From Thalassobaculaceae bacterium (GTDB taxonomy: Bacteria; Pseudomonadota; Alphaproteobacteria; Thalassobaculales; Thalassobaculaceae), in the NCBI GenBank assembly GCA_965228875.1, contig OZ245843.1, positions 2,896,616 to 2,960,615 on the forward strand: a DNA stretch of 64,000 bases, given 5' to 3'. Of this stretch, positions 6,385 to 64,000 are shown in pieces. Numbering within the stretch: position 1 is the stretch's first letter; each line of letters starts with the position of its first letter. The notes below the pieces were generated by a model that saw only the letters and a program-made list of their open reading frames with translations, did no database searches and was not told where the DNA came from. A program made the translations under genes and the position numbers.

Positions 6385-7134
6385 ATGGGAAGCCTGGACG
6401 GCAGGGTCGCGGTCGTCACCGGCGCCGGCCGGAACATCGGACGCGAGATCGCCCTGACCCTGGCCCGCGACGGCGCGGCGATTGTGGTCAACGGGCGCGG
6501 CGATCAGGCGGCGGTCGAGGGTGTGGCCGAGGAGATCCGCACGCTCGGCGGGCGCGCCTTCGGGCATCTGGCGGACGTCTCCGACGAGGCCTGCGTTTCC
6601 GCCATGGTCGAGCGCGCGGTCGCGGAGTTCGGCGGCATCGACATCGTCGTCAGCAATGCCGGCCTGCGCCGCCAGACGCCGTTCCTGGAGATGGGGCTGG
6701 CCGAGTGGCGGGAGATCCTGTCGGTCGCCCTCGACGGCGCCTTCATCCTGACCCGCGCCTGCGTGCCGCATATGCTGGGGCGCGAGGGCGGCGCCATCGT
6801 CGGCCTCAGCGGCGTGTCGACCCATGTGGGCACGCCGGAACGCTGCCACGTCTCGGCCTCGAAATCCGGGTTGGAAGGGCTGATGCGGGCGCTGGCGGTC
6901 GAACTCGGCCCGCACGGCATCACCGCCAACTGCGTCGCTCCCGGCGCCATCGACACGGTGCGGGGAGCCGCCGCCGGGCAGATGCCCAGCACCATGCGCG
7001 CCGCCGGCGTTCCGGCCGGCCGCAAGGGCACGATGGAGGAGATCGCCACCATGGTCCGGCATCTGGTCGGGCCGAACGGCCGCTTCATCACCGGCCAGAC
7101 GATCCACGTGAACGGAGGAGCGTTCCTGACATGA
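6385..7134 (+). CDS. SDR-family oxidoreductase
   Basis: TGAGRNIG, SNAG, N.VAPG, ITGQTIHVNGG; active-site YxxxK reads VSASK; RBS GGAGGAG. Confidence 0.9.
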   Translation: MGSLDGRVAVVTGAGRNIGREIALTLARDGAAIVVNGRGDQAAVEGVAEEIRTLGGRAFGHLADVSDEACVSAMVERAVAEFGGIDIVVSNAGLRRQTPFLEMGLAEWREILSVALDGAFILTRACVPHMLGREGGAIVGLSGVSTHVGTPERCHVSASKSGLEGLMRALAVELGPHGITANCVAPGAIDTVRGAAAGQMPSTMRAAGVPAGRKGTMEEIATMVRHLVGPNGRFITGQTIHVNGGAFLT

Positions 7135-40731: not shown

Positions 40732-41982
40732 TCAGGTCTTGGGCCGCTTCATCTTGCAGCTGGTCGGGCTGTCCTTGCCGGCCATGGTCACCGTCGACTC
40801 GTCGACCAGACCGAAGCCGGAATTGTCGGCATCGATGACAACGCCCTCGTCGGTGTGAACCGAGATGTGCACGTCCTGGATCGCCTGGTGATCGGACGGG
40901 CGCATCCACACCTTGCCCCCCATGATCGTCTCGTACTCCATCCCCTCGAGGGCGAGGGCGACCTGAACCGGGTCGGTCGATCCGGCCTTGTCGATCGCCG
41001 CCTTCAGCATGGCGACCACGTTGAAGATCCGCGCCTGGTTGATGTCGTTCTCCGGGTACTTGGCCTTGAACGCGTCGTTCAGCGCCTTGAACTCGGGGGT
41101 CGGCGGATTGAGCGTGCCCTCGCGCACCGTTCGGATGATGTTCTTGCCGAGCGGACCGAACGTCGCCGTGATCCCGTCATGGGCGGCGTAGTAGGTGTAG
41201 ATCGGCGAACTGACCCCGGACTCGATGATCGCCTTGCCGAGACCGACCATGTCCGCGCCCCAGTTGCCGGTGATGACCGCATCGGCGCCGGAGGCCTTGA
41301 TCTTGGTGGCATAGGGCGTGAAGTCCTTGACCTTGCCGATCGGGTGCAGCTCGTTGCCGACCACCTCGATGTCCGGTCGTTTCTCGCCGAGGAACTTCAC
41401 CGCGGCCGCCGCCACGGCCTTACCGAAGCTGTAGTCCTGGCCGATGATGTAGACCTTCTTGACGTCCTGGTTCCGCGCGATCACGTCGGTCAGCGCGTCC
41501 ATCTTGATGTCGGCATTGGCATCGAAACGGAAGTGCCAGAAATTGCACTTGTCGTTGGTCAGCGCCGGATCCACCGCCGAGTAGTTCAGGAACAGGACCC
41601 GCTGGTCGGGATTGCGCCTGTTGTGCTTCTCGATCGCGTCGGTCAGCGCGTTCGCCACGCCCGAGGAGTTGCCCTGGGCGACGAACTGGATTCCATCGCT
41701 GATCGCCCGCTTGAGCTGGATCAGGCTCTCTTTGGGACTGATCTTGTTGTCGAGCGGCACGATCTCGAACGTGCGCCCCCCGAGCACGCCCCCCTTCTCG
41801 TTCACCAGGGCCTCGGCGGCGAACTCGAACGACCGCAGGCCCGATTCGCCGGTCGTGGCGAACGGGCCGGACAGCGGGTCGATGAAGGCGATCTTGATGG
41901 GCTCGGCGGCCTGCGCGCCGGCCGACGCCGCCAACGCGATACCGATCGTGGCGGCCAGCGCCGCCCTACGGGTAAACGACAT
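40732..41982 (-). CDS. ABC transporter substrate-binding protein (LivK-like)
   Basis: Signal peptide, IKIAFIDPLSG, QGNSS, CNFWHFRFD, ITGNWG. Confidence 0.93.
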   Translation of the reverse strand: MSFTRRAALAATIGIALAASAGAQAAEPIKIAFIDPLSGPFATTGESGLRSFEFAAEALVNEKGGVLGGRTFEIVPLDNKISPKESLIQLKRAISDGIQFVAQGNSSGVANALTDAIEKHNRRNPDQRVLFLNYSAVDPALTNDKCNFWHFRFDANADIKMDALTDVIARNQDVKKVYIIGQDYSFGKAVAAAAVKFLGEKRPDIEVVGNELHPIGKVKDFTPYATKIKASGADAVITGNWGADMVGLGKAIIESGVSSPIYTYYAAHDGITATFGPLGKNIIRTVREGTLNPPTPEFKALNDAFKAKYPENDINQARIFNVVAMLKAAIDKAGSTDPVQVALALEGMEYETIMGGKVWMRPSDHQAIQDVHISVHTDEGVVIDADNSGFGLVDESTVTMAGKDSPTSCKMKRPKT

Positions 41983-42183
41983 GCTTTCCTCCCTCTCGGC
42001 CGTCCGGCTCCCACTTTTCAGGTGCGGGAGTCCGCCGACGTTTAAAGCATGACGAGAGGGTTCCGGAGGGTCAAGCGCGACGGCCGGGATCGCCGCCGAG
42101 GCCCGATTCGCACCTAACGGACGCGACCACGGTCGGGCATTCGCACAACCGTTCGGGAGTTATTCAAAGGTGTCGGGAAGGAA

Positions 42184-42288
42184 ATGGCGCGCCTCGACGG
42201 AGAAAGTTCGAAAGAACTCTTCAACACGCTGGCGGACTGGACGCACATAATCCGCCACGAACTGCCGCCGGTCGATCCGCGCCCTTAG
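42184..42288 (+). other. candidate attL: TGGCGCGCC core (antisense of a tRNA-Arg-type 3' end) with a 34-codon integrase-like C-terminal tail
   Basis: Reverse complement GGCGCGCCA is a CCA-ending tRNA terminus; frame reads MARLDGESSKELFNTLADWTHIIRHELPPVDPRP*. Confidence 0.6.
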
Positions 42289-42308
42289 ACTCCTGACAGT
42301 CTTTCTCC

Positions 42309-42349
42309 CAAAGCACCGCGGCGGTTCCGCCCAGGTGCTTTGTTTTTTT
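42309..42349 (+). terminator. intrinsic terminator after the integrase-like tail
   Basis: CAAAGCACC/GGTGCTTTG stem with inner GGCGG/CCGCC, then T7. Confidence 0.75.
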
Positions 42350-42417
42350 CAGGGATGATGGTTTCGTCAACCGGCGGCACTGCGGCAGCCGGAATTGATT
42401 TCACTGTCCGCTTTGCC

Positions 42418-42801
42418 ATGACTGATAAAACGCCGAAGACGATACCATTCTCTATACGCCTGACCCCGGCAGAACGCGCCGACCTGGAGCGCCGTGCGGG
42501 AAAGCAGGCGCTCGGCGACTACATCCGCGAACGACTGTTCGGAACGGCGAGCCGCCCGAACCAGATTGCCATCTCCGCCAAACCCCGCGCCGTGACCGCC
42601 GAGAGAGAGATGCTCGCGGCCGTGCTCGCTCGCCTCGGTCAGTCCGACCTCGCCCGCAGCATGGCAGCGCTCGCCCGATCCGCAAATATCGGCGCACTCC
42701 CGGTGTCCCCCGAGATCGAAGCCACCCTCGGGCAGGCTTGCCAGCATATCGCAGCAATGAAATCCGCCCTGATGGCCGCTCTCGGCATCAAGGAGGGGTG
42801 A
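42418..42801 (+). CDS. MobC-like ribbon-helix-helix relaxosome accessory protein
   Basis: PFSIRLT..ERA.LE..AG...LGDYIR; directly upstream of relaxase; ends LM.ALG. Confidence 0.75.
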   Translation: MTDKTPKTIPFSIRLTPAERADLERRAGKQALGDYIRERLFGTASRPNQIAISAKPRAVTAEREMLAAVLARLGQSDLARSMAALARSANIGALPVSPEIEATLGQACQHIAAMKSALMAALGIKEG

Positions 42802-42802
42802 C

Positions 42803-44212
42803 GTGATCCTCAAGGCCTCGCAACGGGGCGGTGGCAAGCAGCTCGCGCTTCATCTTCTCAACGCCATCGACAACGAGCACGTCGAGTTGCACGACCTGCG
42901 CGGCTTCGTCAGCGACGATCTGGTCGGCGCAATGAAAGAGGCGCATGCCGTCAGCCTGGGAACGCGATGCAGACAGTTTCTGTTCTCGGTATCGCTCAAT
43001 CCGCCGCCGAACGAAAACGTCTCGCCGGAAATGTTCGAGGACGCCCTGACGCGGATCGAGGCGAAGACCGGTTTGACCGGTCAGCCCCGCGCGGTCGTGT
43101 TCCACGAGAAGGAGGGTCGCAGGCACTGCCACGCCGTGTACTCGCGCATCGACGCCAACAGCATGACGGCGATCAACCTGCCTCACTTCAAGCTGAAGCT
43201 CCGGGACATCTCCAAACAGCTGTACCTGGAGAACGATTGGCGGTTGCCTGCCGGTCTCGTGGACAGCCAAGCCAGATCGCCGCTCAACTACACGCTGGCC
43301 GAGCATCAGCAGGCGAAGCGCATGAGTCGCGACGCGCGCGACCTCAAGGCAATGGCTCAGGAATGCTGGGCTGCATCGGATTCCGCCGCGGCTTTCGCGC
43401 ATGCGCTCAGAGAACGCGGCCTCACCCTGGCCCAGGGCGACCGGCGGGGCCATGTCGCCGTGACCCACGACGGCGAGGTGCTGGCGCTTGCCCGCTTGCT
43501 CGGCAGGAAAACGAAGGAGGTGCGTGCCCGCCTCGGAGAACCGGGCGCACTCCCCAGCGTGGATCAGGCGAAAGCCGACGCCGCCAAGGGCATGAGTGCC
43601 GCCTTTGCCCGGCACATCGCCGAGGCAAAGGATCAACACCGGCAGGCCATGTTGCCGCTGGATGCCCGCCGCCAAACGATGACGCACGCGCACCGGGCCG
43701 AGCGCCATATGCTCGATGCGGGCCAGAAGCATCGCTGGGAGGCCGAAACACTTGAGCGTTCCGGACGCCTCAACAAGGGGCTCCGCGGCCTGTGGGACAG
43801 GCTGACCGGCCGCCAAGGCGAAACCCAGCGTCGGAACATCGCCGAAGCCGCGACGGCGCTCCAACGTGACCGGCAGCAGCGTCAGGAACTCATCGCGGCG
43901 CAATTGGCCGAGCGGCGCGAGTTGCAGCAAGAGATCGCGGCCAAGCGGGCGGAGCAGGCAGTTCTGCTGCGCGAGCTGCGGGCCGAACGTGCGCCGTACC
44001 GGAACAAGCCGGAGCGGGACGGCCATCAGCATGGTTCGGCAGGCGAGAACGCCGAGCGACAGCGCCAGTCTCCGGCACCCGCACACTCTCCGGCGCTCAG
44101 GCCAATTTTCGCGGATATGGCTAAAGCGAATATCCCGAGGAAAGGACTGGAAGAGCGCCTGGAGCAGGTTCGCTCGGCCACGCCGCGGCTAGACCGGCAC
44201 TTGGAGCGATAG
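42803..44212 (+). CDS. relaxase (MobA/VirD2-like HUH endonuclease)
   Basis: VFHEKEGRRHCHAVYSRID three-His motif, SLNPP, LAQGDRRG, coiled-coil C-terminus; RBS AGGAGG. Confidence 0.88.
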   Translation: MILKASQRGGGKQLALHLLNAIDNEHVELHDLRGFVSDDLVGAMKEAHAVSLGTRCRQFLFSVSLNPPPNENVSPEMFEDALTRIEAKTGLTGQPRAVVFHEKEGRRHCHAVYSRIDANSMTAINLPHFKLKLRDISKQLYLENDWRLPAGLVDSQARSPLNYTLAEHQQAKRMSRDARDLKAMAQECWAASDSAAAFAHALRERGLTLAQGDRRGHVAVTHDGEVLALARLLGRKTKEVRARLGEPGALPSVDQAKADAAKGMSAAFARHIAEAKDQHRQAMLPLDARRQTMTHAHRAERHMLDAGQKHRWEAETLERSGRLNKGLRGLWDRLTGRQGETQRRNIAEAATALQRDRQQRQELIAAQLAERRELQQEIAAKRAEQAVLLRELRAERAPYRNKPERDGHQHGSAGENAERQRQSPAPAHSPALRPIFADMAKANIPRKGLEERLEQVRSATPRLDRHLER

Positions 44213-46970: not shown

Positions 46971-48593
46971 ATGGATCGATACGACGACGCCTTCCGGGAG
47001 GGACTCCGATACGGCAGCGCCGCATGGGCCGATGAGAGCGATTTGCGGAGAGCGGGTCTATTCGGGAAGCGCGGTCCTCAGATCGGCTACTGGCGGCACA
47101 GGCCAATCCGCATCGACGGCGACGCCCCGATGATCCTGTTCGGTGGGGCCGGTTCCGGGAAAATGCGTGACATACTGGCGTATGTTCTGTGCAACTCACC
47201 AGGCCAGCGGACGCTAGTGCTCGACCCCCGCGGCGAGGGTGCGGCGATCTCCCTGAACATCCATGCGCCGCATGGGGACGACGCCTATTGCTGGAACCCG
47301 ACGCGGTTCCCCTTCCTGCCCCACAATCAGTGCGATCCTCTCGACATCCTCAAGCCCGGCCGTCCGACCTTCCACGCCGACGTCAAGTTCGTTGCCGAAG
47401 CGCTGATCGCGATCAGCGGCTCCAGCAAAGAGGGATATTTCGAGAAGCGCGGGCGCGACTGGATTGGTGCGCTGATGGTCGACGAAGCCGAGGCCAAGGG
47501 CGGCGTCTCCCTTCCTGCCCTCAAGCGCGCCGTCGACAGCATCGATTCGGACTCCAATGTCTGGGCCGATCGCCTGAAGCGGATGCTGGCTTCGCCGCAC
47601 GACTATGTGCGCCGCACTGCGGGCGAAATGCTGACCAAGCAGCAGGACAGCCCGCGCGAGTTCGGCGCGACCATGGGCACTATCTACGGTGCGCTCGGGT
47701 TTCTGGACGACCCGGCGCTCGTGGCCTCGCTGGAGAACCCGGACTTCTCGCTCTCGGCACTGACCGATCCGCAGCGTCCGGCGAAGGTCTTCCTCAACGT
47801 CCCGGCCGAGTACCTCTCGATGTGGGCTCCGCTGATCCGGCTCTTCTTCACCGTCACCATGCTCTACAAGTCGCGCGCGCCCTCCGCGCCGCGCGTCATG
47901 CTGCTGGTCGACGAGGCGGGGCAGCTCGGACGCTTCGAGACGCTGCTGCGCGCCTTCACGTTCGGCCGAGGTGGAGGGATCAGGGCCTACGCGGTATTCC
48001 AGGACATAGGTCAGGTCGATCGCAACTACGGTTCGGCAGCGCGGCCGGGCTTCATCGGTTCCGCCCAGACCCGCCAGTTCTTCGGCGTGCGGGACTACGA
48101 GACCGCGCAGCTGGTTTCGAACATGCTCGGCACCGAGACGCTGGAATATGACGACGCGCTGCGCCAGGAGCAGGCACGGCGGCACAAGGAAGCGGCATTC
48201 CGTTCGATCTTCACCGACGATGCCGATCCCTTCGAAGCAGCCCGTGACTACGCCCACTACGCCCGCGAGCAGGCGAACCGCACCAAGCAGTCGCGCCGCC
48301 TGATGACGCCTGAGGAGGTCATGGCCTTGCCGGAGGACCGGCAGATTCTGTTCATCTCGGGCAAGGACCTGAACCCGATCCTTGCCTGGAAGTACCCGTA
48401 CTACACCCGCAGGGAGATGGCGGGCTTGTACCTGAACAACCCGTATCACCCGCCGATGGACAGGGTGCCCGTGCGCGGCTGGTTCGGCACGCGCTGGCGC
48501 GACATTGTCACCGGCCCGGTGCCGGAAAGGTACGCGGGTTTCCCCCAACACCGGGACGGAATGCGGCGATACGTGAAGGGGTACGAACTCTGA
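46971..48593 (+). CDS. virD4: type IV coupling protein (VirD4/TraG family) lacking N-terminal TM anchor
   Basis: YGSAAWA, Walker A GGAGSGKM, VLDPRGE, Walker B LLVDEAGQLG, FQDIGQ...YG, TA..VS..LG, R.LMTP.EV. Confidence 0.9.
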   Translation: MDRYDDAFREGLRYGSAAWADESDLRRAGLFGKRGPQIGYWRHRPIRIDGDAPMILFGGAGSGKMRDILAYVLCNSPGQRTLVLDPRGEGAAISLNIHAPHGDDAYCWNPTRFPFLPHNQCDPLDILKPGRPTFHADVKFVAEALIAISGSSKEGYFEKRGRDWIGALMVDEAEAKGGVSLPALKRAVDSIDSDSNVWADRLKRMLASPHDYVRRTAGEMLTKQQDSPREFGATMGTIYGALGFLDDPALVASLENPDFSLSALTDPQRPAKVFLNVPAEYLSMWAPLIRLFFTVTMLYKSRAPSAPRVMLLVDEAGQLGRFETLLRAFTFGRGGGIRAYAVFQDIGQVDRNYGSAARPGFIGSAQTRQFFGVRDYETAQLVSNMLGTETLEYDDALRQEQARRHKEAAFRSIFTDDADPFEAARDYAHYAREQANRTKQSRRLMTPEEVMALPEDRQILFISGKDLNPILAWKYPYYTRREMAGLYLNNPYHPPMDRVPVRGWFGTRWRDIVTGPVPERYAGFPQHRDGMRRYVKGYEL

Positions 48594-49235: not shown

Positions 49236-49613
49236 ATGATCGAATATCTGATTGAACGTGAGCGTGAGGAAAACTTCCGTACATCGACCCGAACGTTGTC
49301 CTTCCCCGACGGCGAGACCCGCCGGATCGAGGCGTACCGCCTCGTATGGACGTGGTTTGACCGTGCTGTCGCCTACGAGTTCGGACCTTCCGAAGAAGAC
49401 ATCCTGACCATGACGCTGCGCTGCGCGGACATGGAGCGCCGCGCCCCCGACGCTGCCTTGGGCCGTGTCCTGGGCTATCTCATCCAGCGGGACGAGGCCG
49501 GCGGAATGGATTACACCGACGACAACCTACAGCTCATGCTTGCCAAACGCGGTGTGCGGCGGTTTCATGAACGGAGAAAGTGTAGATCACCCAAGGGACG
49601 CACAAAACCCTAG
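49236..49613 (+). CDS. hypothetical protein, weak ribbon-helix-helix (RHH_4)-like pattern
   Basis: TRTLSF.DG..RRI....LVW..F strand-strand-helix pattern; AT-rich upstream region. Confidence 0.55.
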   Translation: MIEYLIEREREENFRTSTRTLSFPDGETRRIEAYRLVWTWFDRAVAYEFGPSEEDILTMTLRCADMERRAPDAALGRVLGYLIQRDEAGGMDYTDDNLQLMLAKRGVRRFHERRKCRSPKGRTKP

Positions 49614-52009
49614 TTGACAGGCTCATTGTCAGGCGAATATTTTGCGACACACCGATTGATATCACCCATGAACGCGATATGCCAGATCCTATATTTATTA
49701 TATACTGTTCCTAGAAAGACAAGATCTGGGCTTTCTCTATACGATTCGATGATTGATTCTTCAAGATCGGAAACGATACGATCAAGAGCACCCCTAATAT
49801 TCTTGAAACACACGTCAACATCCTGGCTTGTAATTTCATCTAATGCGCCACGCAAAGTACGGAAAGAATATAAAATGTCAGGAATTCTGCCGTCATTGTA
49901 AGATGTGTTAGCACTTTCCGCAGAAGTAACGATAGATTTCAAAATGAACTTCGGATCGTCAAATGCCACTCCATATTCATAAAGTAACAAGCCGTAGTCA
50001 ATCTGACGCGAAGCGGCGGAAACGTTATCAACATCATCAAATATCGACAAAGCCTCTTCATACTGATTCAGAGCTTCTCGAATATAATTTGTGTTCTTAC
50101 TTTTCTTGTAAAGAGCTCGCTTTATCAAAGACAGACTAAACAGCATACCAGCATATGAATATGGTTGATTGTTTTTAAATTTGATTATCTGATGTTCATA
50201 CCATTTTACGTTTTCTTCTATATTCAATATTTCAGATTCCAATCCTATGTCAAAAACATACCCAATCAATGCTCCAAATGAACCGGAAATCTCTTCCGAA
50301 TCTCTTCTCCTTTCCATCTCACTCCATACGGCCAATATGTCCCGGGTTGCTTGATCGTTTAATGTCGAATCTTCTGTTTGCAACGCGAGATTAAGTCGTG
50401 CCCTAGCATACTGAAACTGCGCTATAATCCTATTGTTAGATTCTTTGGGCATTAGTGATACAACGTCCCCAAGTGTGTCAACCGCCTCCTTCATTCTTTC
50501 CGTATTCTGCAAACGCCCGGTATATGTAATGTTTGACCTTGTTCCGCGAGTTTGCAGAAATTCAGCTAGAGAAAGCTTTTGTTGAGTACAGTCATTTATC
50601 GACGGAGAAGTCTCACAAAATTTAACGGCTTCGCGCATCACGGAGGTTCCCGCGATAATATATTCATTGTCACCAGTACCATTTCCAAACAGGACTTTTG
50701 ACTTCGCAATCATGTGAAGCCGCGCCACTCTCTCATTGTCCTTGAGAACATAGCGAGTATGACTCACCATACCCTCTAGAAGTTCTATCGCTTTAAGTAA
50801 ATTTTTAAATGAGCCAGCGCCAGTTGCACTGTCAATCAGAGAGGCCGCGGCTCTAAAAGTATAATATTTCTCTGATTCATGATTTTTCGCTATCGAAAAG
50901 TATCTAGCTGCTTCTAAAAAATCCTGATAGGCAGAAAAATCATCGAAATTGATACTCTTCGTAGAAGCAGATTTTGCAAATACCTCCGCTAAAGTCTGAC
51001 TTAAAGTTGAGTGGCTTTGCGTCAGGACTTTTGTAGACTCGTCATATTTTTCGGACGCCTCGGCGAACCGGCCTTCTGCTGACAAATTTTCAGCAACTAC
51101 AAGAAGTTTCCCACCCACTCCTAGATCCGAAACATCCACCACTTTCATCGAAGCCTGATAGTTTTCGGCAAAGATAGAAAGAAAACCCGGAACTTCTTCG
51201 ATACTGATACTCTTATTTGCTCCAATTTTTACTAATTGATGGATGATGGCATCTCTTGGAATTCTAAGATACTTCTCCATATGGTTAATCTTGGCGCCGT
51301 TCTCCTGAGATATTACGAGAACTCTACTAAGATAATCGATTTGCCCTTGATATTTACGTTGAATTTCTTCCTGAATGGTGATCGTCGATCTGCGTTCGCT
51401 GTTTTCGATATGCCAGATCAAGCCAATTACTACAAATATCGATACCGCCACAGCACCATAGATATATACTTTGTGCTTCCGAACTAGTAATTTAATTGCT
51501 CTAATTATGAAATGCGTTGAAGGTTCTCTTATCTCGTTTAAATCAATTGTCGATTGGACCTTCCTCCCTTCCTTGTCAAAAATGGGCAAGGCAGAGAAAC
51601 TTGGCTCCGGCTCTGCGCCAACATAATTATGGAATGGAACTCCAAAGTGATTGTATAGTTTCTTCGCTTCCGCGGGATGATAATATGTCAACCAGGCTAG
51701 GTATCCGGGAAGATGATCCCATTTCTCCCCAATTTTTAGAGCATTGAAGAACCGATTAGCGTGATAGAGTCGCTGTTTATCTTCTGTCACACGTGGCTCT
51801 AGCTGTTCACCAATCGATTTCGCAAACGCGTCAACCTTGTTGTAGAGCTGTAGTCTATTCAAATTGTCGTGTTTGTGACACAGCGTGATTGTCTCCAGAA
51901 TCTTAGCCACATCGTAGGACTTAGGCCCGGTCGCGCACGCGCTCCTAATACGTTTAGCGTCCTCGGCAAATCGACGGTTCTCTGAAGTTACAGACACGTC
52001 GCAACGCAC
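49610..52009 (-). CDS. low-GC protein with one TM helix and TPR-like alpha-solenoid
   Basis: 799 codons open in AT-rich DNA; TM VYIYGAVAVSIFVVIGLIW; TPR-like GRFAEASEKYDE, IREALNQYEEAL; start uncertain. Confidence 0.75.
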   Translation of the reverse strand: MRCDVSVTSENRRFAEDAKRIRSACATGPKSYDVAKILETITLCHKHDNLNRLQLYNKVDAFAKSIGEQLEPRVTEDKQRLYHANRFFNALKIGEKWDHLPGYLAWLTYYHPAEAKKLYNHFGVPFHNYVGAEPEPSFSALPIFDKEGRKVQSTIDLNEIREPSTHFIIRAIKLLVRKHKVYIYGAVAVSIFVVIGLIWHIENSERRSTITIQEEIQRKYQGQIDYLSRVLVISQENGAKINHMEKYLRIPRDAIIHQLVKIGANKSISIEEVPGFLSIFAENYQASMKVVDVSDLGVGGKLLVVAENLSAEGRFAEASEKYDESTKVLTQSHSTLSQTLAEVFAKSASTKSINFDDFSAYQDFLEAARYFSIAKNHESEKYYTFRAAASLIDSATGAGSFKNLLKAIELLEGMVSHTRYVLKDNERVARLHMIAKSKVLFGNGTGDNEYIIAGTSVMREAVKFCETSPSINDCTQQKLSLAEFLQTRGTRSNITYTGRLQNTERMKEAVDTLGDVVSLMPKESNNRIIAQFQYARARLNLALQTEDSTLNDQATRDILAVWSEMERRRDSEEISGSFGALIGYVFDIGLESEILNIEENVKWYEHQIIKFKNNQPYSYAGMLFSLSLIKRALYKKSKNTNYIREALNQYEEALSIFDDVDNVSAASRQIDYGLLLYEYGVAFDDPKFILKSIVTSAESANTSYNDGRIPDILYSFRTLRGALDEITSQDVDVCFKNIRGALDRIVSDLEESIIESYRESPDLVFLGTVYNKYRIWHIAFMGDINRCVAKYSPDNEPVN

Positions 52010-52042
52010 CTTGGCTGAGTCCAGCGATGGACCAATCCATTC

Positions 52043-52726
52043 TCAGAGTCCGGCCTCGGGGTGAGTGACAATAGAAGTCTGCGCCGGCGTCGGAGGGTCG
52101 AGCGGGAGACCGTTGCGGTAGAACGCCCAGGCTTCGATTTCACCAGTATCGGCGTTGCGGCGAACTTTGGCCGGGCCTTCATCTCTATGAAGCTCCCCGT
52201 CCCGGTGCCAAGCCTCGAACAGTGCAACGCCGTTCTCGGAGTCTCGTTCAATTTCTGCCGGTCCGTCCGTTCTGTGCAGTTCACCGTTAACGTACCAATC
52301 CTCGCTCACCCTCACTCCGGTTCCATCGTCTCGGACGATTGAGGCGGGTCCATCAGCGCGATGCAGTTCTCCGCCCTTGTACCAGCGTTCCTCGATATCA
52401 ATGCCGCCTTCGCTCTTGATCAGCTGCGCGGGGCCATCCTGACGATCGAGTTCGCCGTTGCGATACCATAGCCTGATAGTCCACGGATGATTGTGATACA
52501 CGATGGCCGGGCTGTCATCCCGGTGACGCTGCCCGTCCTTCCACCATTCCTCAATAAGCAGTTGCCCATCTTCGGCGTCATAGATCGACACCGCCGGACG
52601 ATCGCCGGAGCGGTGACGGTCGGGCGTACCCTGCTTCGTCCACGTCTCGACCAGTATCGGTCTGTCTGCGACGAACTCAACTTCGTGATCGTCAAGACGC
52701 TCAACTGTTACATCATAACACTCCAT
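52043..52726 (-). CDS. HRxDGPA-repeat protein (MORN-variant-like beta-hairpin repeats)
   Basis: Six repeats W...G..(H/D)R.(D/E)(G/S/R)PA plus a final FYRNG. Confidence 0.8.
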   Translation of the reverse strand: MECYDVTVERLDDHEVEFVADRPILVETWTKQGTPDRHRSGDRPAVSIYDAEDGQLLIEEWWKDGQRHRDDSPAIVYHNHPWTIRLWYRNGELDRQDGPAQLIKSEGGIDIEERWYKGGELHRADGPASIVRDDGTGVRVSEDWYVNGELHRTDGPAEIERDSENGVALFEAWHRDGELHRDEGPAKVRRNADTGEIEAWAFYRNGLPLDPPTPAQTSIVTHPEAGL

Positions 52727-52940
52727 ATCAAATGACTTTCGGTATAAATAGTTCAAATATAAAGTGAATATACATCAAATATTATGAAAATGCAATCTTT
52801 AAGAATAAAACGCCAGAGCCAAACACTCCAAAGCCATCCAAACGACATCCAAACTGGGAAAACCGGCAGATCAACAGACACTTAGCGGTGTCGACGTTCT
52901 GGCGAGACCGGTCTCGCTCCCCTAGCCAAGGAGCGGGAAA

Positions 52941-59986: not shown

Positions 59987-60586
59987 ATGAGCTTCTGGCC
60001 GCAAATCGAATGTACGGGCCGCCGTTTCGGCTATGCCCGCGTCTCCACCAAAGACCAGAAACTGCGGATGCAGATCGACGCGTTGAAAGCCGTGGAGTGC
60101 GTGCGCATCTACCGCGATCACGGCGTCTCGGGCGCGAAGGGCTCTCGCCCCGGTTTGGACCGGATGCTACGGAGCCTGCGCCCCGGCGATTCCGTGGTGG
60201 TGCTCAAGCTCGACCGATTGGGCCGTTCCGTCCAGCACCTGGCCGACCTGCTGGTGCGGTTTCAGCGTGAGGGTGTGCATTTCGTGTCCCTCTCCGAGGG
60301 CATCAACACGACCACCCCAGGTGGCAAGCTGGTGTTTCACATCTTCAGTGCGGTGGCCGAGTTCCAGCGCGACATCATCGTCGAGAACACGAACGCAGGG
60401 CTGGAGGCGGCAAGGCGCAGCGGCAAGCGCCTCGGGCGCAAGCCGAAGCTCACCGTCGACGATGTGGCCGAGATTCACCGGAGCGTGTTGCAGGGGGCGG
60501 CGAGCATCGACGAAGCGGCAACGCTGTTCGGCATTCACCCCCGCACCATCGAGCGGGCGTTGGGTCGTTGTGGGTTCGATGCATGA
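59987..60586 (+). CDS. small serine recombinase (resolvase/invertase)
   Basis: GYARVST.DQ, D.G.SG, RPGL, LDRLGRS, AEF.R..I.E.T..GL..AR..G...GR.P, C-terminal HTH. Confidence 0.95.
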   Translation: MSFWPQIECTGRRFGYARVSTKDQKLRMQIDALKAVECVRIYRDHGVSGAKGSRPGLDRMLRSLRPGDSVVVLKLDRLGRSVQHLADLLVRFQREGVHFVSLSEGINTTTPGGKLVFHIFSAVAEFQRDIIVENTNAGLEAARRSGKRLGRKPKLTVDDVAEIHRSVLQGAASIDEAATLFGIHPRTIERALGRCGFDA

Positions 60587-61171: not shown

Positions 61172-62476
61172 ATGAACTTCATTGACTTATTTGCCGGACT
61201 TGGGGGGTTCCATCAAGCATTATCTAGTCGTGGTGCAAATTGTGTCTTTGCGTCGGAACTTAATCCCACTCTCGCTCGAATATATCAAGCAAACTTTGGC
61301 ATTCAGCCTGCTGGCGACATCAGAGCTGTCGACTTAAATGCTATCCCAGATCACGATGTTCTCTGCGCGGGGTTCCCCTGCCAACCTTTCTCGAAAGCTG
61401 GCGACCAAAAAGGTCTGGAGTGTCCGCAGTGGGGGAACTTATTCGACTATGTTGTTAGCATTTTATCAATAAAACAACCGCGGTTCTTTATAATTGAGAA
61501 CGTACCCAATCTGATTCAGCATAATTCCGGCGAAACTTGGTCGATAATTTGCAGACAGCTTTGCGATCTCGGCTACGATATTAGTTTCCAGAAGCTATCA
61601 CCACACATGTTCGGGATACCGCAGAAGCGCGAGCGAGCATTCATCGTTGGTGATCGAGCAGGATTAGGGGGCTTCCGCTGGCCCATTCCGACGGTTCTTC
61701 CGCCAACGACCATACATTCTGTTCTCGACGACGACCCGGCCGACGCACACGCCCTCAATGCCGACCACCTCCACTATCTGGAGATGTGGCAGCAGTTCGT
61801 CGCGGCATTCCCTAGCGATGAACACCTGCCGACATTCCCGATTTGGGCAATGGAGTTCGGCGCGACATACCCGCTCTATGGGCCTACGCCTCACGCCCGT
61901 GGATATGAAGGAATAAGCGAGTTCAAAGGGGCGTTCGGAACACCGCTGCGTAATCTCTCGCCCGCGGAGACCAAAGACGCTTTACCTGGATACGCTCAAA
62001 CGACCCTGGCCGAGTTTCCGGATTGGAAAATCGAATTCATTATGAAGAACCGCGCCTTCTACAAGCAATATAAGGCAGTCATTGATCCTTGGGTTTGTCA
62101 AATTAAGACATTTCCTCCCAGTTTTCAAAAACTGGAATGGAACTGCAAAGGGGGAGAGCGTGACATCTGGAAGCATATCATCCAGTTCCGAGCCAGTGGA
62201 ATTCGTGTGAAGAAGGCCGATACGGCTCCCTCACTTATTGCCATGACGACAAGCCAGGTTCCAATTATCGCTTGGCTAAAGCGCTATATGACCCCAAGGG
62301 AATGTAGTCGTCTTCAAAGCATGGGCAATCTACAGGTTCTACCCACCACAAAAAACGACGCTTACAAAGCCTTCGGCAACGCCGTTAATGTCGACGTCGT
62401 ACGCAACATATTTGACGCTTTGACCGACCGTTCCACCGACGACCTATCATCCCTGACGGCAGTGGCGGCTGAGTAA
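61172..62476 (+). CDS. DNA (cytosine-5)-methyltransferase
   Basis: DLFAGLGG, GDI, GFPCQPFS, ENV, PQKRER, TPREC.RLQ, FGNAV; long variable region. Confidence 0.95.
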   Translation: MNFIDLFAGLGGFHQALSSRGANCVFASELNPTLARIYQANFGIQPAGDIRAVDLNAIPDHDVLCAGFPCQPFSKAGDQKGLECPQWGNLFDYVVSILSIKQPRFFIIENVPNLIQHNSGETWSIICRQLCDLGYDISFQKLSPHMFGIPQKRERAFIVGDRAGLGGFRWPIPTVLPPTTIHSVLDDDPADAHALNADHLHYLEMWQQFVAAFPSDEHLPTFPIWAMEFGATYPLYGPTPHARGYEGISEFKGAFGTPLRNLSPAETKDALPGYAQTTLAEFPDWKIEFIMKNRAFYKQYKAVIDPWVCQIKTFPPSFQKLEWNCKGGERDIWKHIIQFRASGIRVKKADTAPSLIAMTTSQVPIIAWLKRYMTPRECSRLQSMGNLQVLPTTKNDAYKAFGNAVNVDVVRNIFDALTDRSTDDLSSLTAVAAE

Positions 62477-64000
62477 TGGCACAACTTCGTTCGGTCAATA
62501 TACGTCCTGGCGTCAATGTTCTCTCAGTTCTGCCGCATCTCAATTACAAGGCGTGGTATGCACTTGCCGAATTCGTCGATAACGCTATTCAAAGCAGTCT
62601 CGACAAAAAACGCGAGCTGGCGGTAGCGGACGGCTCCAACTATAAACTGCGCGTCGACATTCGATTTGACGCTCACGAGAACACGATCACGATCACTGAC
62701 AACGCAGCAGGGATCGCCGAGTCTGACTATCAACGTGCGTTTCGCCCGGCTGAGATACCACCGGACGCTTCCGGTCTTTCTGAATTCGGCATGGGAATGA
62801 AGAGCGCCGCGTGCTGGTTTGCCCCTAATTGGAGCGTACGAACGACAGCTCTCGGTGAGAATATCGAGCGCACAGTGATCTTCGATATTGAGCAGATTGT
62901 CGAAGATCGTGTTGAAGAATTACATGTCATATCAACCCAGATCTCCGCCAGTCAACATCACACCGAAATTCGACTTGACAATATCCGGCGCTTTCCACGT
63001 GGGCGCACTCTGCAGAAGATCAAAGATCACCTCTCTAGCATTTACCGCGTCTTCCTGCGCGACGGCACGCTAACGCTCACTGTCGACGGCGAACCGCTCG
63101 CCTATCAGGAGCCCGGTATCCTTGTAGCGCCGAGCTATCGCGACCCCGACGGACCGAACATCACCTGGAGGAGGGAGATCAACATCCCGCTCGGGGAGGG
63201 AAAAAGCGTGACGGGATTCGTTGCCATTCGGGAGCCCGCAAGTACGAAGCTGGCCGGTTTTGCGCTGTTTCGCCGGAAGCGCCTGATCATGGGCAGCTAC
63301 GATGAGACCTACCGTCCAGAAGACATCTTCGGCCGCTCCACCACATACGCGTATCAACGTCTCTTCGGGGAAATTCACCTGAAGGGATTTCAGGTCAGTC
63401 ACACCAAAGATGGGATCAAGTGGGAGGAGAGCGAGGAGGCGTTTCTCCAGGAACTCCGAAAAATTCTCTCCGACGATGCCATGCCCCTCATGCAACAGGT
63501 CCGAGAGCATCGAAGCAAGAAGGACGTCAAGGCCACTCGGAAGGATGCGGCAGCAGCGCTCATCTCAATGGCCAATCGTCTGAACCAACGCACCTTAGCG
63601 GTCGACACGCAACCCGCGGCCAACGATCCGACCCCAACACAGCCGGACACTGTCAGAGCGCTGGGTGAGCCGCCGCTACCTTCCTTGTCTGAGAGCGAGC
63701 ACGAGCGTGTTCAGTTCCGGATGCACTTCCGAAGCGAGGACTGGATCATCTCAATCGAACTCTCATACGCCGACAACGGCGCGGACTGGCTCGATATCCG
63801 CAGTCGTCCTTCGATTGCGGATCCAGAACCTCGAGAGATCACGATCCGGGTCGCGATGCTGCACCCGTTCATGGCGCAGTTTCCCACTATGGATTCGGAG
63901 GGGTTCACCGCGGTGCTCGACATTGCAGCGGCGATGGCACTTGCAGAGGTTATCATGGCGGAGGCAGCTGACCGAACCCCGTCAGCTATACGCCGTCTAA
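62476..64000 (+). CDS. GHKL/MORC-family ATPase (partial, runs off window; absent from ORF track)
   Basis: TAATG overlap with methylase; 508 codons with no stop; ALAEFVDNAIQS, ITDNAAGI, EFGMGMKSA, HTEI, then FALFRRKRLI..RLFGEIHL..SHTKD. Confidence 0.92.
   Translation, partial: MAQLRSVNIRPGVNVLSVLPHLNYKAWYALAEFVDNAIQSSLDKKRELAVADGSNYKLRVDIRFDAHENTITITDNAAGIAESDYQRAFRPAEIPPDASGLSEFGMGMKSAACWFAPNWSVRTTALGENIERTVIFDIEQIVEDRVEELHVISTQISASQHHTEIRLDNIRRFPRGRTLQKIKDHLSSIYRVFLRDGTLTLTVDGEPLAYQEPGILVAPSYRDPDGPNITWRREINIPLGEGKSVTGFVAIREPASTKLAGFALFRRKRLIMGSYDETYRPEDIFGRSTTYAYQRLFGEIHLKGFQVSHTKDGIKWEESEEAFLQELRKILSDDAMPLMQQVREHRSKKDVKATRKDAAAALISMANRLNQRTLAVDTQPAANDPTPTQPDTVRALGEPPLPSLSESEHERVQFRMHFRSEDWIISIELSYADNGADWLDIRSRPSIADPEPREITIRVAMLHPFMAQFPTMDSEGFTAVLDIAAAMALAEVIMAEAADRTPSAIRRL

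Follow-up and report, generated by a model that had tools for sequence, protein, structure and literature searches.

An orphan reading frame at the left end of a Thalassobaculaceae island is very probably the displaced C-terminus of the island's own serine integrase

The window analysed here, a stretch of 64,000 nucleotides that spans positions 2896616–2960615 of contig OZ245843.1 of a Thalassobaculaceae bacterium, contains a transition from host DNA to a mobile element, and at this transition lies a short open reading frame followed by a terminator-like hairpin. The frame (P0002) begins MARLDGESSKELFNTLADW..., is initiated by ATG, comprises 34 codons and occupies positions 42184–42288 of the plus strand. 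It opens on a 9-bp sequence, TGGCGCGCC, at window positions 42185–42193, which we refer to as the core. The first base of the frame is host DNA and its codons 1–3 are formed with the core, while the other 31 codons would correspond to the tail of the integrase in its excised form. No complete plus-strand gene was found upstream of the frame; indeed, the frame and the hairpin own no gene, because the sole gene to the left, which is livK-like, lies on the minus strand. The features of this left junction are as follows.

40732–41982, minus strand: host livK-like periplasmic binding protein gene (Pfam Peripla_BP_6, E 1.2e-70), the left flank of the insertion site
41983–42184: host intergenic DNA, the putative former trailer of a tRNA-Arg gene and B arm of attL; aligns with the purine-rich DNA 5′ of TGGCGCGCC in the empty sites of relatives
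42185–42193: attL core TGGCGCGCC, antisense to the CCA, the discriminator base and the last five acceptor-stem bases of tRNA-Arg(ACG); predicted to hold the crossover
42184–42288, plus strand: putative displaced C-terminal coding segment of the integrase; homologous tails occur in 16 other genomes, and the segment is contiguous with the integrase in protein P0121
42194–42213: putative P′ half-site of attP, with a TTCGAA box at 42207–42212 that coincides with tail codons 8–10
42217–42252, plus strand: tail codons 12–23 (LFNTLADWTHII), a predicted amphipathic helix, LFxxLxxWxxxL, conserved at the protein level
42309–42342 and 42343–42349, plus strand: intrinsic-terminator-like hairpin and the run of seven T that follows it, identified by folding energy

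Taken singly, the core 9-mer, the open frame and the hairpin are unremarkable, and their significance comes from comparative evidence. The window contains five copies of the core where 3.5 are expected, a number that 30 of 100 shuffled sequences also reach. A 31-codon open stretch has a chance near 0.45 in DNA of this G+C content, by arithmetic from base composition. The hairpin folds at −22 kcal/mol (z −2.72), and one of 200 shuffles was equally stable. A scan of 41900–42900 for consensus terminators returned 0 sites against 1.2 expected, missing the hairpin because its stem contains an internal loop. Similarly, a genome-wide short-word BLAST search with 41991–42420 revealed no longer direct repeat; its best matches elsewhere spanned 15–24 bases, and a 9-bp core is below its reach, so that the second core copy was recognised from the positions of the integrase and tRNA genes.

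The partner of this junction lies outside the window, in the locus to its right (L001, in which position 6759 is equivalent to window position 70759). The Pfam Recombinase model has a single match in the whole genome, at 2966411–2966677 on the plus strand within an open frame of 522 codons, and ARAGORN places a tRNA-Arg(ACG) on the minus strand at 2967375–2967451. In the coordinates of the locus these features are:

L001 5247–6797, plus strand: large serine recombinase P0001, 516 amino acids, with Resolvase, Recombinase and Zn_ribbon_recom domains
L001 6760–6768: attR core TGGCGCGCC, the tRNA's 3′ end
L001 6760–6836, minus strand: tRNA-Arg(ACG), identified by ARAGORN

A second copy of the core is therefore present 6.8 kb to the right of the window, where the integrase gene reads through it, such that the final 38 bases of the gene lie inside the tRNA gene in antisense. 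The core stands in codon phase 1 in the integrase and the orphan frame alike, giving both the shared codons xTG GCG CGC. After the core, the chromosomal integrase gene continues with nine codons of antisense tRNA and the orphan frame with 31 codons; by count, the rejoined integrase gene would encode 538 amino acids as compared to 516. The integrase gene and the tRNA gene converge with a 38-bp overlap (L001 6760–6797). The trailer and terminator that originally belonged to the tRNA gene are now 28.6 kb away at attL, and therefore read-through of the tRNA gene could, in the integrated state, give RNA antisense to the integrase 3′ end.

The assignment of P0001 to the large serine recombinases rests on several features. 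A resolvase-type catalytic domain (PF00239) covers residues 6–154 at E 6.5e-24, and the catalytic serine, S13 of an RVS motif, is invariant in an alignment of 106 sequences. The Recombinase domain (PF07508) is marginal in P0001, with 19.3 bits in the protein scan (cut-off 21.1) and 22.8 bits in the genome search, and is present in many of its homologues according to a precomputed list. A zinc beta-ribbon (PF13408) occupies residues 287–344 at E 5.6e-9.

To the left, the host sequence can be compared with sites that carry no insertion. The livK flank was recovered at ten loci of relatives, where it is 82–89% identical, and at seven of these a tRNA-Arg(ACG) gene directly follows livK and thereby defines the empty site; at the remaining three livK loci no tRNA was seen. 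The junction of the empty site reads as a purine-rich flank, then (A/G/T)TGGCGCGCC, then CGGGAAGATTCGAAC, and so unites attL's left side with attR's right side. In addition, a contig from an aquatic metagenome (run X3) follows 41566–42193 with one differing letter and then continues with CGGGAAGATTCGAACTCC, antisense to the tRNA. Therefore, the X3 contig and the loci of relatives together show that host identity stops exactly at the end of the core, at 42193. The original prediction, made from the window alone, had read the core as a tRNA-Arg-like 3′ end in antisense at the host–island transition, and had placed attP inside the 3′ end of an integrase gene. It had expected, to the right, a plus-strand large serine recombinase entering TGGCGCGCC of a minus-strand tRNA-Arg gene and, in island-free relatives, a tRNA gene next to livK. 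Each of these expectations agrees with what was found: both the integrase and the tRNA carry the core at the right boundary, the core copies share their codon phase, and the tRNA-Arg gene adjoins livK at most of the relatives' loci.

Two further sequencing runs contain attL itself. Contigs from run X1 span attL without a loose end at the core, but such contigs drop rare variants and are therefore uninformative about excision. In run X2, which samples the species a second time, the assembly carries attL in the form seen in the window, and it also includes a contig of 1237 bases that shares 42248–42277 and then diverges (GATCAACACC...) within the last codons of the tail. This contig may represent a variant or another, related element.

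The break in the integrase gene is also visible between proteins. We recovered more than 2900 homologues of P0001 at E ≤ 1e-20 and sorted the C-termini of the best 120, including P0001 itself. The other 119 are 55–68% identical to P0001, and 101 of them run into antisense T-loop codons (FEP, FEL and others, often followed by SIQLSYG); seven stop within five residues of the core, nine end otherwise or could not be placed, and two have tail-like ends. Among the tail-like ends, that of P0121 (...MAHLEGETSNALFEELANWNHQLQ...) is clearly homologous to the orphan frame in the window and is here contiguous with an integrase; the attP-form proteins counted are P0121 and P0099, the latter partial. When P0121 is compared with P0061, which has an antisense-tRNA end, the two proteins are 91% identical over residues 1–513 and diverge straight after the core-coded MAH, as expected if attP lies inside the integrase 3′ end. 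A metagenome contig (L080) places the tail of this same lineage behind unrelated sequence, which corresponds to attL. The likeness of the orphan tail to recombinase tails, proposed in the original prediction, is thus substantiated by a contiguous homologue and by tails in 16 other genomes.

Given these observations, we consider it very probable that 42184–42288 represents the integrase gene's own end, displaced by integration, and that it marks attL of an element of about 28.6 kb (28,575 bp with one core copy counted) inserted into tRNA-Arg(ACG) by its own serine recombinase. In this integrase family attP lies within the last part of the integrase gene, with coding sequence as its P arm, a core that mimics the CCA and acceptor end of the tRNA, and approximately the first ten codons of the C-terminal tail as its P′ arm. 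As the sequences show, integration parts the integrase gene from its last 31 codons, so that the chromosomal gene encodes a protein of 516 amino acids ending in nine antisense-tRNA residues, and the 31 codons, in this element together with the terminator, stay at attL, 28.6 kb off. Excision, or a tandem junction, would rebuild an integrase of 538 amino acids that ends in the 31-residue orphan tail, and in the excised circle the terminator hairpin would end the integrase transcript.

To place this arrangement in a broader context we surveyed 401 genomes sampled from the class. A member of the integrase family was found in 25 of them, from which 30 loci were returned, and at 27 of these loci a tRNA gene on the opposite strand meets the integrase 3′ end. 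The target tRNAs are diverse and include four Arg anticodons, Val, Phe, Glu, Ser, Leu, Thr, Tyr and Ala. A tail profile built from two sequences gave 18 matches at E < 1e-3 in 16 genomes besides this one. The integrase is present in 13 of these 16 genomes, and integrase remnants lie 4–6 kb from the tail in two more. For 11 integrase copies in ten other genomes, a pairing that takes in two weak tail matches (E 0.06–0.08), the tail is located on the strand of the integrase and 4–38 kb upstream on the same contig. Codon phase is held between attL and attR in all nine pairs examined (eight other copies and this genome). It is visible in the longest shared block in eight; in G218 the core is mismatched, and the phase was read by inspecting TGGCGC. 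Furthermore, a NikA-like gene and relaxase homologues follow the tail at 14 of the 16 other tail loci.

Three of the copies are very small or decayed, the tail lying 4–6 kb from the integrase or from what is left of it (G103:C1:192445-197952, G287:C1:2158201-2163421 and G328:C43:11359-17422); in the G287 and G328 copies the integrase is reduced to a fragment. Searches of other collections were less productive. When the tail region of P0121 was used to query a word-indexed protein collection, P0121 itself was the only match, and an 18-row tail profile run against the same word-indexed proteins returned 11 proteins of 108–263 amino acids and no full-length integrase. Similarly, tblastn of P0121 against a plasmid collection gave no match at E 1e-50, and P0001 matched no family member in plasmid and phage collections, only serine recombinases of 22–27% identity and C-terminal fragments.

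The two arms that flank the core allow the putative att sites to be compared with those of studied serine integrases. In the available text of Rutherford et al. (PMC3783163), the motif bound by the zinc ribbon domain of a serine integrase sits 5 bp nearer the centre in attB than in attP, and published minimal attP sites are given as approximately 40–50 bp in total. In the present element, counting from the T of TGG, the TTCGAA box starts at 17 bp in the tRNA arm, where it belongs to the antisense T-loop, and at 22 bp in the tail arm. This 5-bp offset, assessed on the P′/B′ side, matches the attP/attB model, and the P′-arm reading explains the first ten codons of the tail as P′ DNA. The core is 9 bp long here and 6–10 bp in the eight other elements for which both ends are available. 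Across the nine elements, the blocks of identity have core positions 2–5 in common, which is where the crossover would fall if its position is conserved. Integrases of the P0001 family would thus seem to recognize the T-loop box, which is near-universal, together with the CCA end of tRNA genes, and such a mode of recognition would explain the spread of the family across many isoacceptors.

The tail itself appears to be conserved in two different ways along its length. Seventeen tails could be aligned without gaps over 23 codons, with the consensus M-A-[RH]-L-[ED]-G-E-[ST]-S-N-x-L-F-[ED]-x-L-x-[ED]-W-x-x-x-L, and the proportions of nonsynonymous (pN) and synonymous (pS) differences calculated from all pairs of these related sequences are descriptive. 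Codons 1–3 are the tRNA mimic. Codons 6–10 (GGA GAA AST TCG AAC) are conserved at the level of DNA, with few synonymous changes among the 17 elements. Codons 12–23, by comparison, gave pS 0.73 and pN 0.34 in frame, for a pN/pS of 0.46, as compared to 0.79 and 1.77 in the other two frames. The leucine codons at 12, 16 and 23 interchange CTN and TTR, and the TGG of Trp19 is retained in 15 of the 17 tails. From this pattern, translation of the tail and its selection as protein at codons 12–23 are well supported.

We then asked where such a helix might reside on the integrase. A complex was modelled with the tail supplied as its own chain, using alignments of 106 rows (A4) for the integrase and 18 rows (A2) for the tail. 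Its score was 0.73, and the best of three controls scored 0.00; among reference cases, 116 of the 157 solved complexes and two of the 215 mismatched pairs score at least as high, a comparison that is approximate for a model made with our own alignments. The runs share at least 84% of their contacts, with a predicted local distance difference test score (pLDDT) of at least 68 for the partner. Tail residues L12, F13, L16, W19 and I23 are predicted to contact integrase residues 364–371, 440–448, 459–469 and 489–494, within which W365, L448 and L469 are invariant in the 106-row alignment and F441, E442, A444, F447 and P491 are nearly so. An AlphaFold2 model of P0121, for which the alignment contained no tail rows (subtract 6 for P0001 numbering), has two long helices after the zinc ribbon, at 357–405 and 409–435, which would form the coiled coil typical of these enzymes. 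On this model the docking contacts map to the lower part of the first long helix and to the short helices after the second. The tail helix may therefore be packed in a conserved hydrophobic groove lined by the lower part of the coiled coil's first helix and by the helices located after the coiled coil.

Docking near the base of the coiled coil would mean that the free and integrated enzymes differ in a region governing synapsis and directionality. Most likely the tailed form would have full competence for integration, whereas the form left in the chromosome, lacking the tail, would be altered, being attenuated, less stable or partner-dependent; such a pair would resemble IntP and IntX of myxophage Mx8. 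A further step, which we put forward tentatively and regard as somewhat doubtful, is that recombination edits the enzyme itself, such that the tailed form in the circle and the tail-less form in the chromosome differ in directionality or lifetime, giving a switch encoded in cis. A switch of this kind would act in place of, or alongside, a separate directionality factor, and either the orphan peptide or a conserved small open reading frame upstream of the integrase might complement it in trans. The conservation of the tail as protein and the predicted docking site lend a directionality or stability switch support that is indirect only.

A number of points weigh against this interpretation. Excision and both isoforms are predictions from sequence, and binding of the tail by the integrase is supported by the complex model rather than demonstrated. 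In the AlphaFold2 model of P0121 the tail helix, at 522–535, has a pLDDT of 34–49, and that run leaves its placement unsupported. Moreover, the tail is covalently joined beside residues 489–494, so that its docking may merely describe the last helix of the fold instead of a regulator. The antisense-tRNA ends vary freely in length, and therefore the family tolerates arbitrary chromosomal C-termini; the tail could accordingly be dispensable for excision or even for activity. Past codon 23 the tail is variable and often ends in proline, and the pairs behind pN/pS, drawn from 17 related sequences, are not independent. Finally, a comparable hairpin with a T-run follows the tail at none of the 16 related tail loci: ten lack a T-run within 110 bases, and six have weak structures only (0 to −12 kcal/mol).

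The terminator is therefore a real feature of the present element and not part of the family design. The original prediction of an intrinsic terminator holds to the extent that a hairpin with a T-run folds stably in the window; the family does not share it. At the tail loci of relatives (L045–L068), a NikA-like mobilization gene mostly begins within about 50–100 bases of the tail stop codon with no terminator between. In the circular form of most relatives, integrase transcription could run on into the mobilization genes, which could then be co-transcribed with the integrase across attP in the circle only.

How much of the tail's conservation reflects protein function bears on the leading alternative, in which the tail is conserved only as attP DNA, the peptide is roleless read-through and the two isoforms are equivalent. 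Codons 6–10, conserved as DNA, coincide with the motif expected for the zinc ribbon domain in the P′ arm and fit such a view well, as do the tolerance of integrated forms for arbitrary antisense-tRNA ends and the low AlphaFold2 confidence for the tail. Conservation, however, reaches codon 23, about 66 bp from the core, as compared to the approximately 40–50 bp of a whole minimal attP in the accessible part of PMC3783163. Over codons 12–23 synonymous change is near saturation with Leu, Phe and Trp kept, the off-frames lack this pattern, and the predicted contacts fall on residues that are invariant in the family. We therefore judge an explanation from DNA alone to be improbable.

Slightly less probable still is expression of the orphan frame from attL, while the element is integrated, to give a free peptide of 34 residues that acts in trans, for example by filling the vacant groove of the chromosomal integrase. 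The junction does create an ATG behind purine-rich host sequence, the 17 tail frames start with ATG in 11 cases and with GTG or TTG in five, and the predicted docking had the tail as a chain of its own. Yet the first base of the frame and everything upstream are host DNA never selected for such a role, one element has CAA at this position, no sigma-70-like promoter was found in 41900–42900, and the neighbouring host gene points away. As for a chance meeting of an unrelated short frame and a stray hairpin beside a GC-rich 9-mer, each of which is unremarkable alone, it is scarcely credible, being already refuted by the second, in-phase core at the integrase–tRNA junction and by the empty sites of relatives.

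The remainder of the element was examined for composition and gene content. Its G+C content is 40–55% in parts of 44–63 kb, as compared to 62–72% in host DNA left of the junction. The features of the element are listed below.

42194–64000: body of the element within the window, running on to L001 6759 (window-equivalent 70759)
42340–42801, plus strand: NikA/MobC-like relaxosome accessory gene (Pfam NikA-like, E 2.9e-4, below the curated cut-off)
42803–44212, plus strand: relaxase (Pfam Relaxase PF03432, E 3.4e-13; weak NCBIfam MobP match)
46971–48593, plus strand: type IV coupling protein (Pfam T4SS-DNA_transf, E 1.3e-44)
61172–63999 of the window and L001 40–3218: cargo operon encoding a C-5 cytosine methyltransferase, HATPase_c_3 (a histidine-kinase-type ATPase), a Z1 helicase-like protein and DUF4420 of the PD-(D/E)XK type
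L001 3412–4110: ArdA-like antirestriction gene, after the cargo operon

The true start of the NikA-like gene is probably the ATG at 42419. With an integrase, a relaxase and a coupling protein, the element is, by its gene content, probably an integrative mobilizable element; among the 32 open reading frames scanned against Pfam, several of which have no family, none matched a type IV secretion family. The cargo operon is, as judged from its annotations, a restriction-modification-like defence module. A block of low G+C content (40–44%) at 49610–52756 carries minus-strand open reading frames of 799 and 237 amino acids with no Pfam or PADLOC match, and it is probably cargo acquired more recently within the element. 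A resolvase/invertase of 199 amino acids with a helix-turn-helix domain is also encoded inside the element, at 59987–60586, approximately 9 kb away from the gene for the large integrase, and may be cargo, serve in resolution or act as a partner.

An open reading frame of 141 amino acids (L001 4794–5219, plus strand), the true start of which is probably further in, lies immediately upstream of the integrase. Homologues of 110–140 amino acids are found directly upstream of the integrase at no fewer than 14 loci of the family, with the conserved core ...Y..L....L(T/S)E.Q..E(L/F)L..LW.I...FVDLGFGVHP. No family match was found for it in Pfam or PHROGs. Its position and conservation make it a candidate directionality factor or regulator.

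Serine integrases are prized in genome engineering for their directionality, which is generally attributed to a distinct protein factor that acts on the coiled coil. The elements described here represent a natural family whose reaction would add or remove a conserved helix near the coiled coil, its placement being that of the model. They also indicate that serine integrases can target the 3′ ends of tRNA genes, and the proposed reading of the T-loop box and CCA end could explain how relatives move among isoacceptors and suggests a route to retargeting. For genome annotation, the arrangement accounts both for ragged integrase C-termini that overlap tRNA genes and for short orphan frames at the far ends of islands.

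Several known systems share parts of this design. In the integration-dependent immunity of mycobacteriophages, attP lies in the 3′ end of a gene and integration alters the C-terminus and stability of the protein; the affected gene there encodes the repressor instead of the integrase, and recombination is carried out by a tyrosine integrase. The SSV integrases are archaeal tyrosine recombinases in which the split removes a large part of the gene as opposed to a short tail. Phage Mx8 targets a tRNA-Asp gene, and its IntP/IntX pair resembles the present case in that the attP crossover lies within the integrase frame and integration rewrites the C-terminus in both. Mx8 Int is nevertheless a phage tyrosine recombinase, whereas the enzyme here is a large serine recombinase whose island is probably mobilizable and has a 9-bp core and serine-integrase half-sites. 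According to a review (PMC6070905), integration of Mx8 leaves the integrase gene with a new 3′ terminus and alters the enzyme's specificity. The parts of the Islander paper available to us (PMC4383910) describe the Mx8 and SSV integrase genes as extending across attP, with SSV-type genes spanning attP and being partitioned by integration into a tRNA gene. According to the same 2015 paper, targeting of tRNA genes was not known for integrases of the serine family.

A serine integrase with a related layout has been described in the ssrA islands of Dehalococcoides. In the available text of McMurdie et al. (2011, PMC3146451), the gene for DsiB, a serine integrase of approximately 540 amino acids, always overlaps attL at its 3′ end, and DsiB is suggested to be perhaps fully functional only on the circularized element; no conserved tail, codon analysis or docking site is reported in that portion. 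As in the present family, the 3′ end of the integrase gene overlaps the att site and runs antisense into the target RNA gene. In contrast, DsiB targets a tmRNA, is CcrB-like and has an adjacent small partner, DsiA, whereas the target here is tRNA-Arg. The sole CcrB match of P0001 in NCBIfam reaches 43.8 bits against a cut-off of 900 bits and is confined to the N-terminal domain. In the position of DsiA, the upstream neighbour here is the 141-residue open reading frame, which has no family match, and the only small resolvase is about 9 kb away. The layout and the idea that isoforms might differ are therefore already in print, including for one serine integrase. In the full-text literature searched we found no account of an alphaproteobacterial tRNA-targeting family, of the conserved tail or of a docking site, although the supplements of TIGER/Islander and of Durrant et al. 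may list members.

Finally, the canonical phage integrases of the LI/A118, phiC31, Bxb1 and SPbeta systems share with P0001 the order of resolvase, recombinase and zinc ribbon domains, the two long helices, short att sites and a small core, and identity to phage integrases such as TP901-1 is 22–25%. They likewise show a 5-bp offset of the motif between attB and attP, as here. In the canonical systems, however, attP lies outside the integrase gene and a separate directionality protein acts on the coiled coil, whereas in the family described here attP lies inside the gene and a C-terminal helix of the enzyme is physically exchanged.

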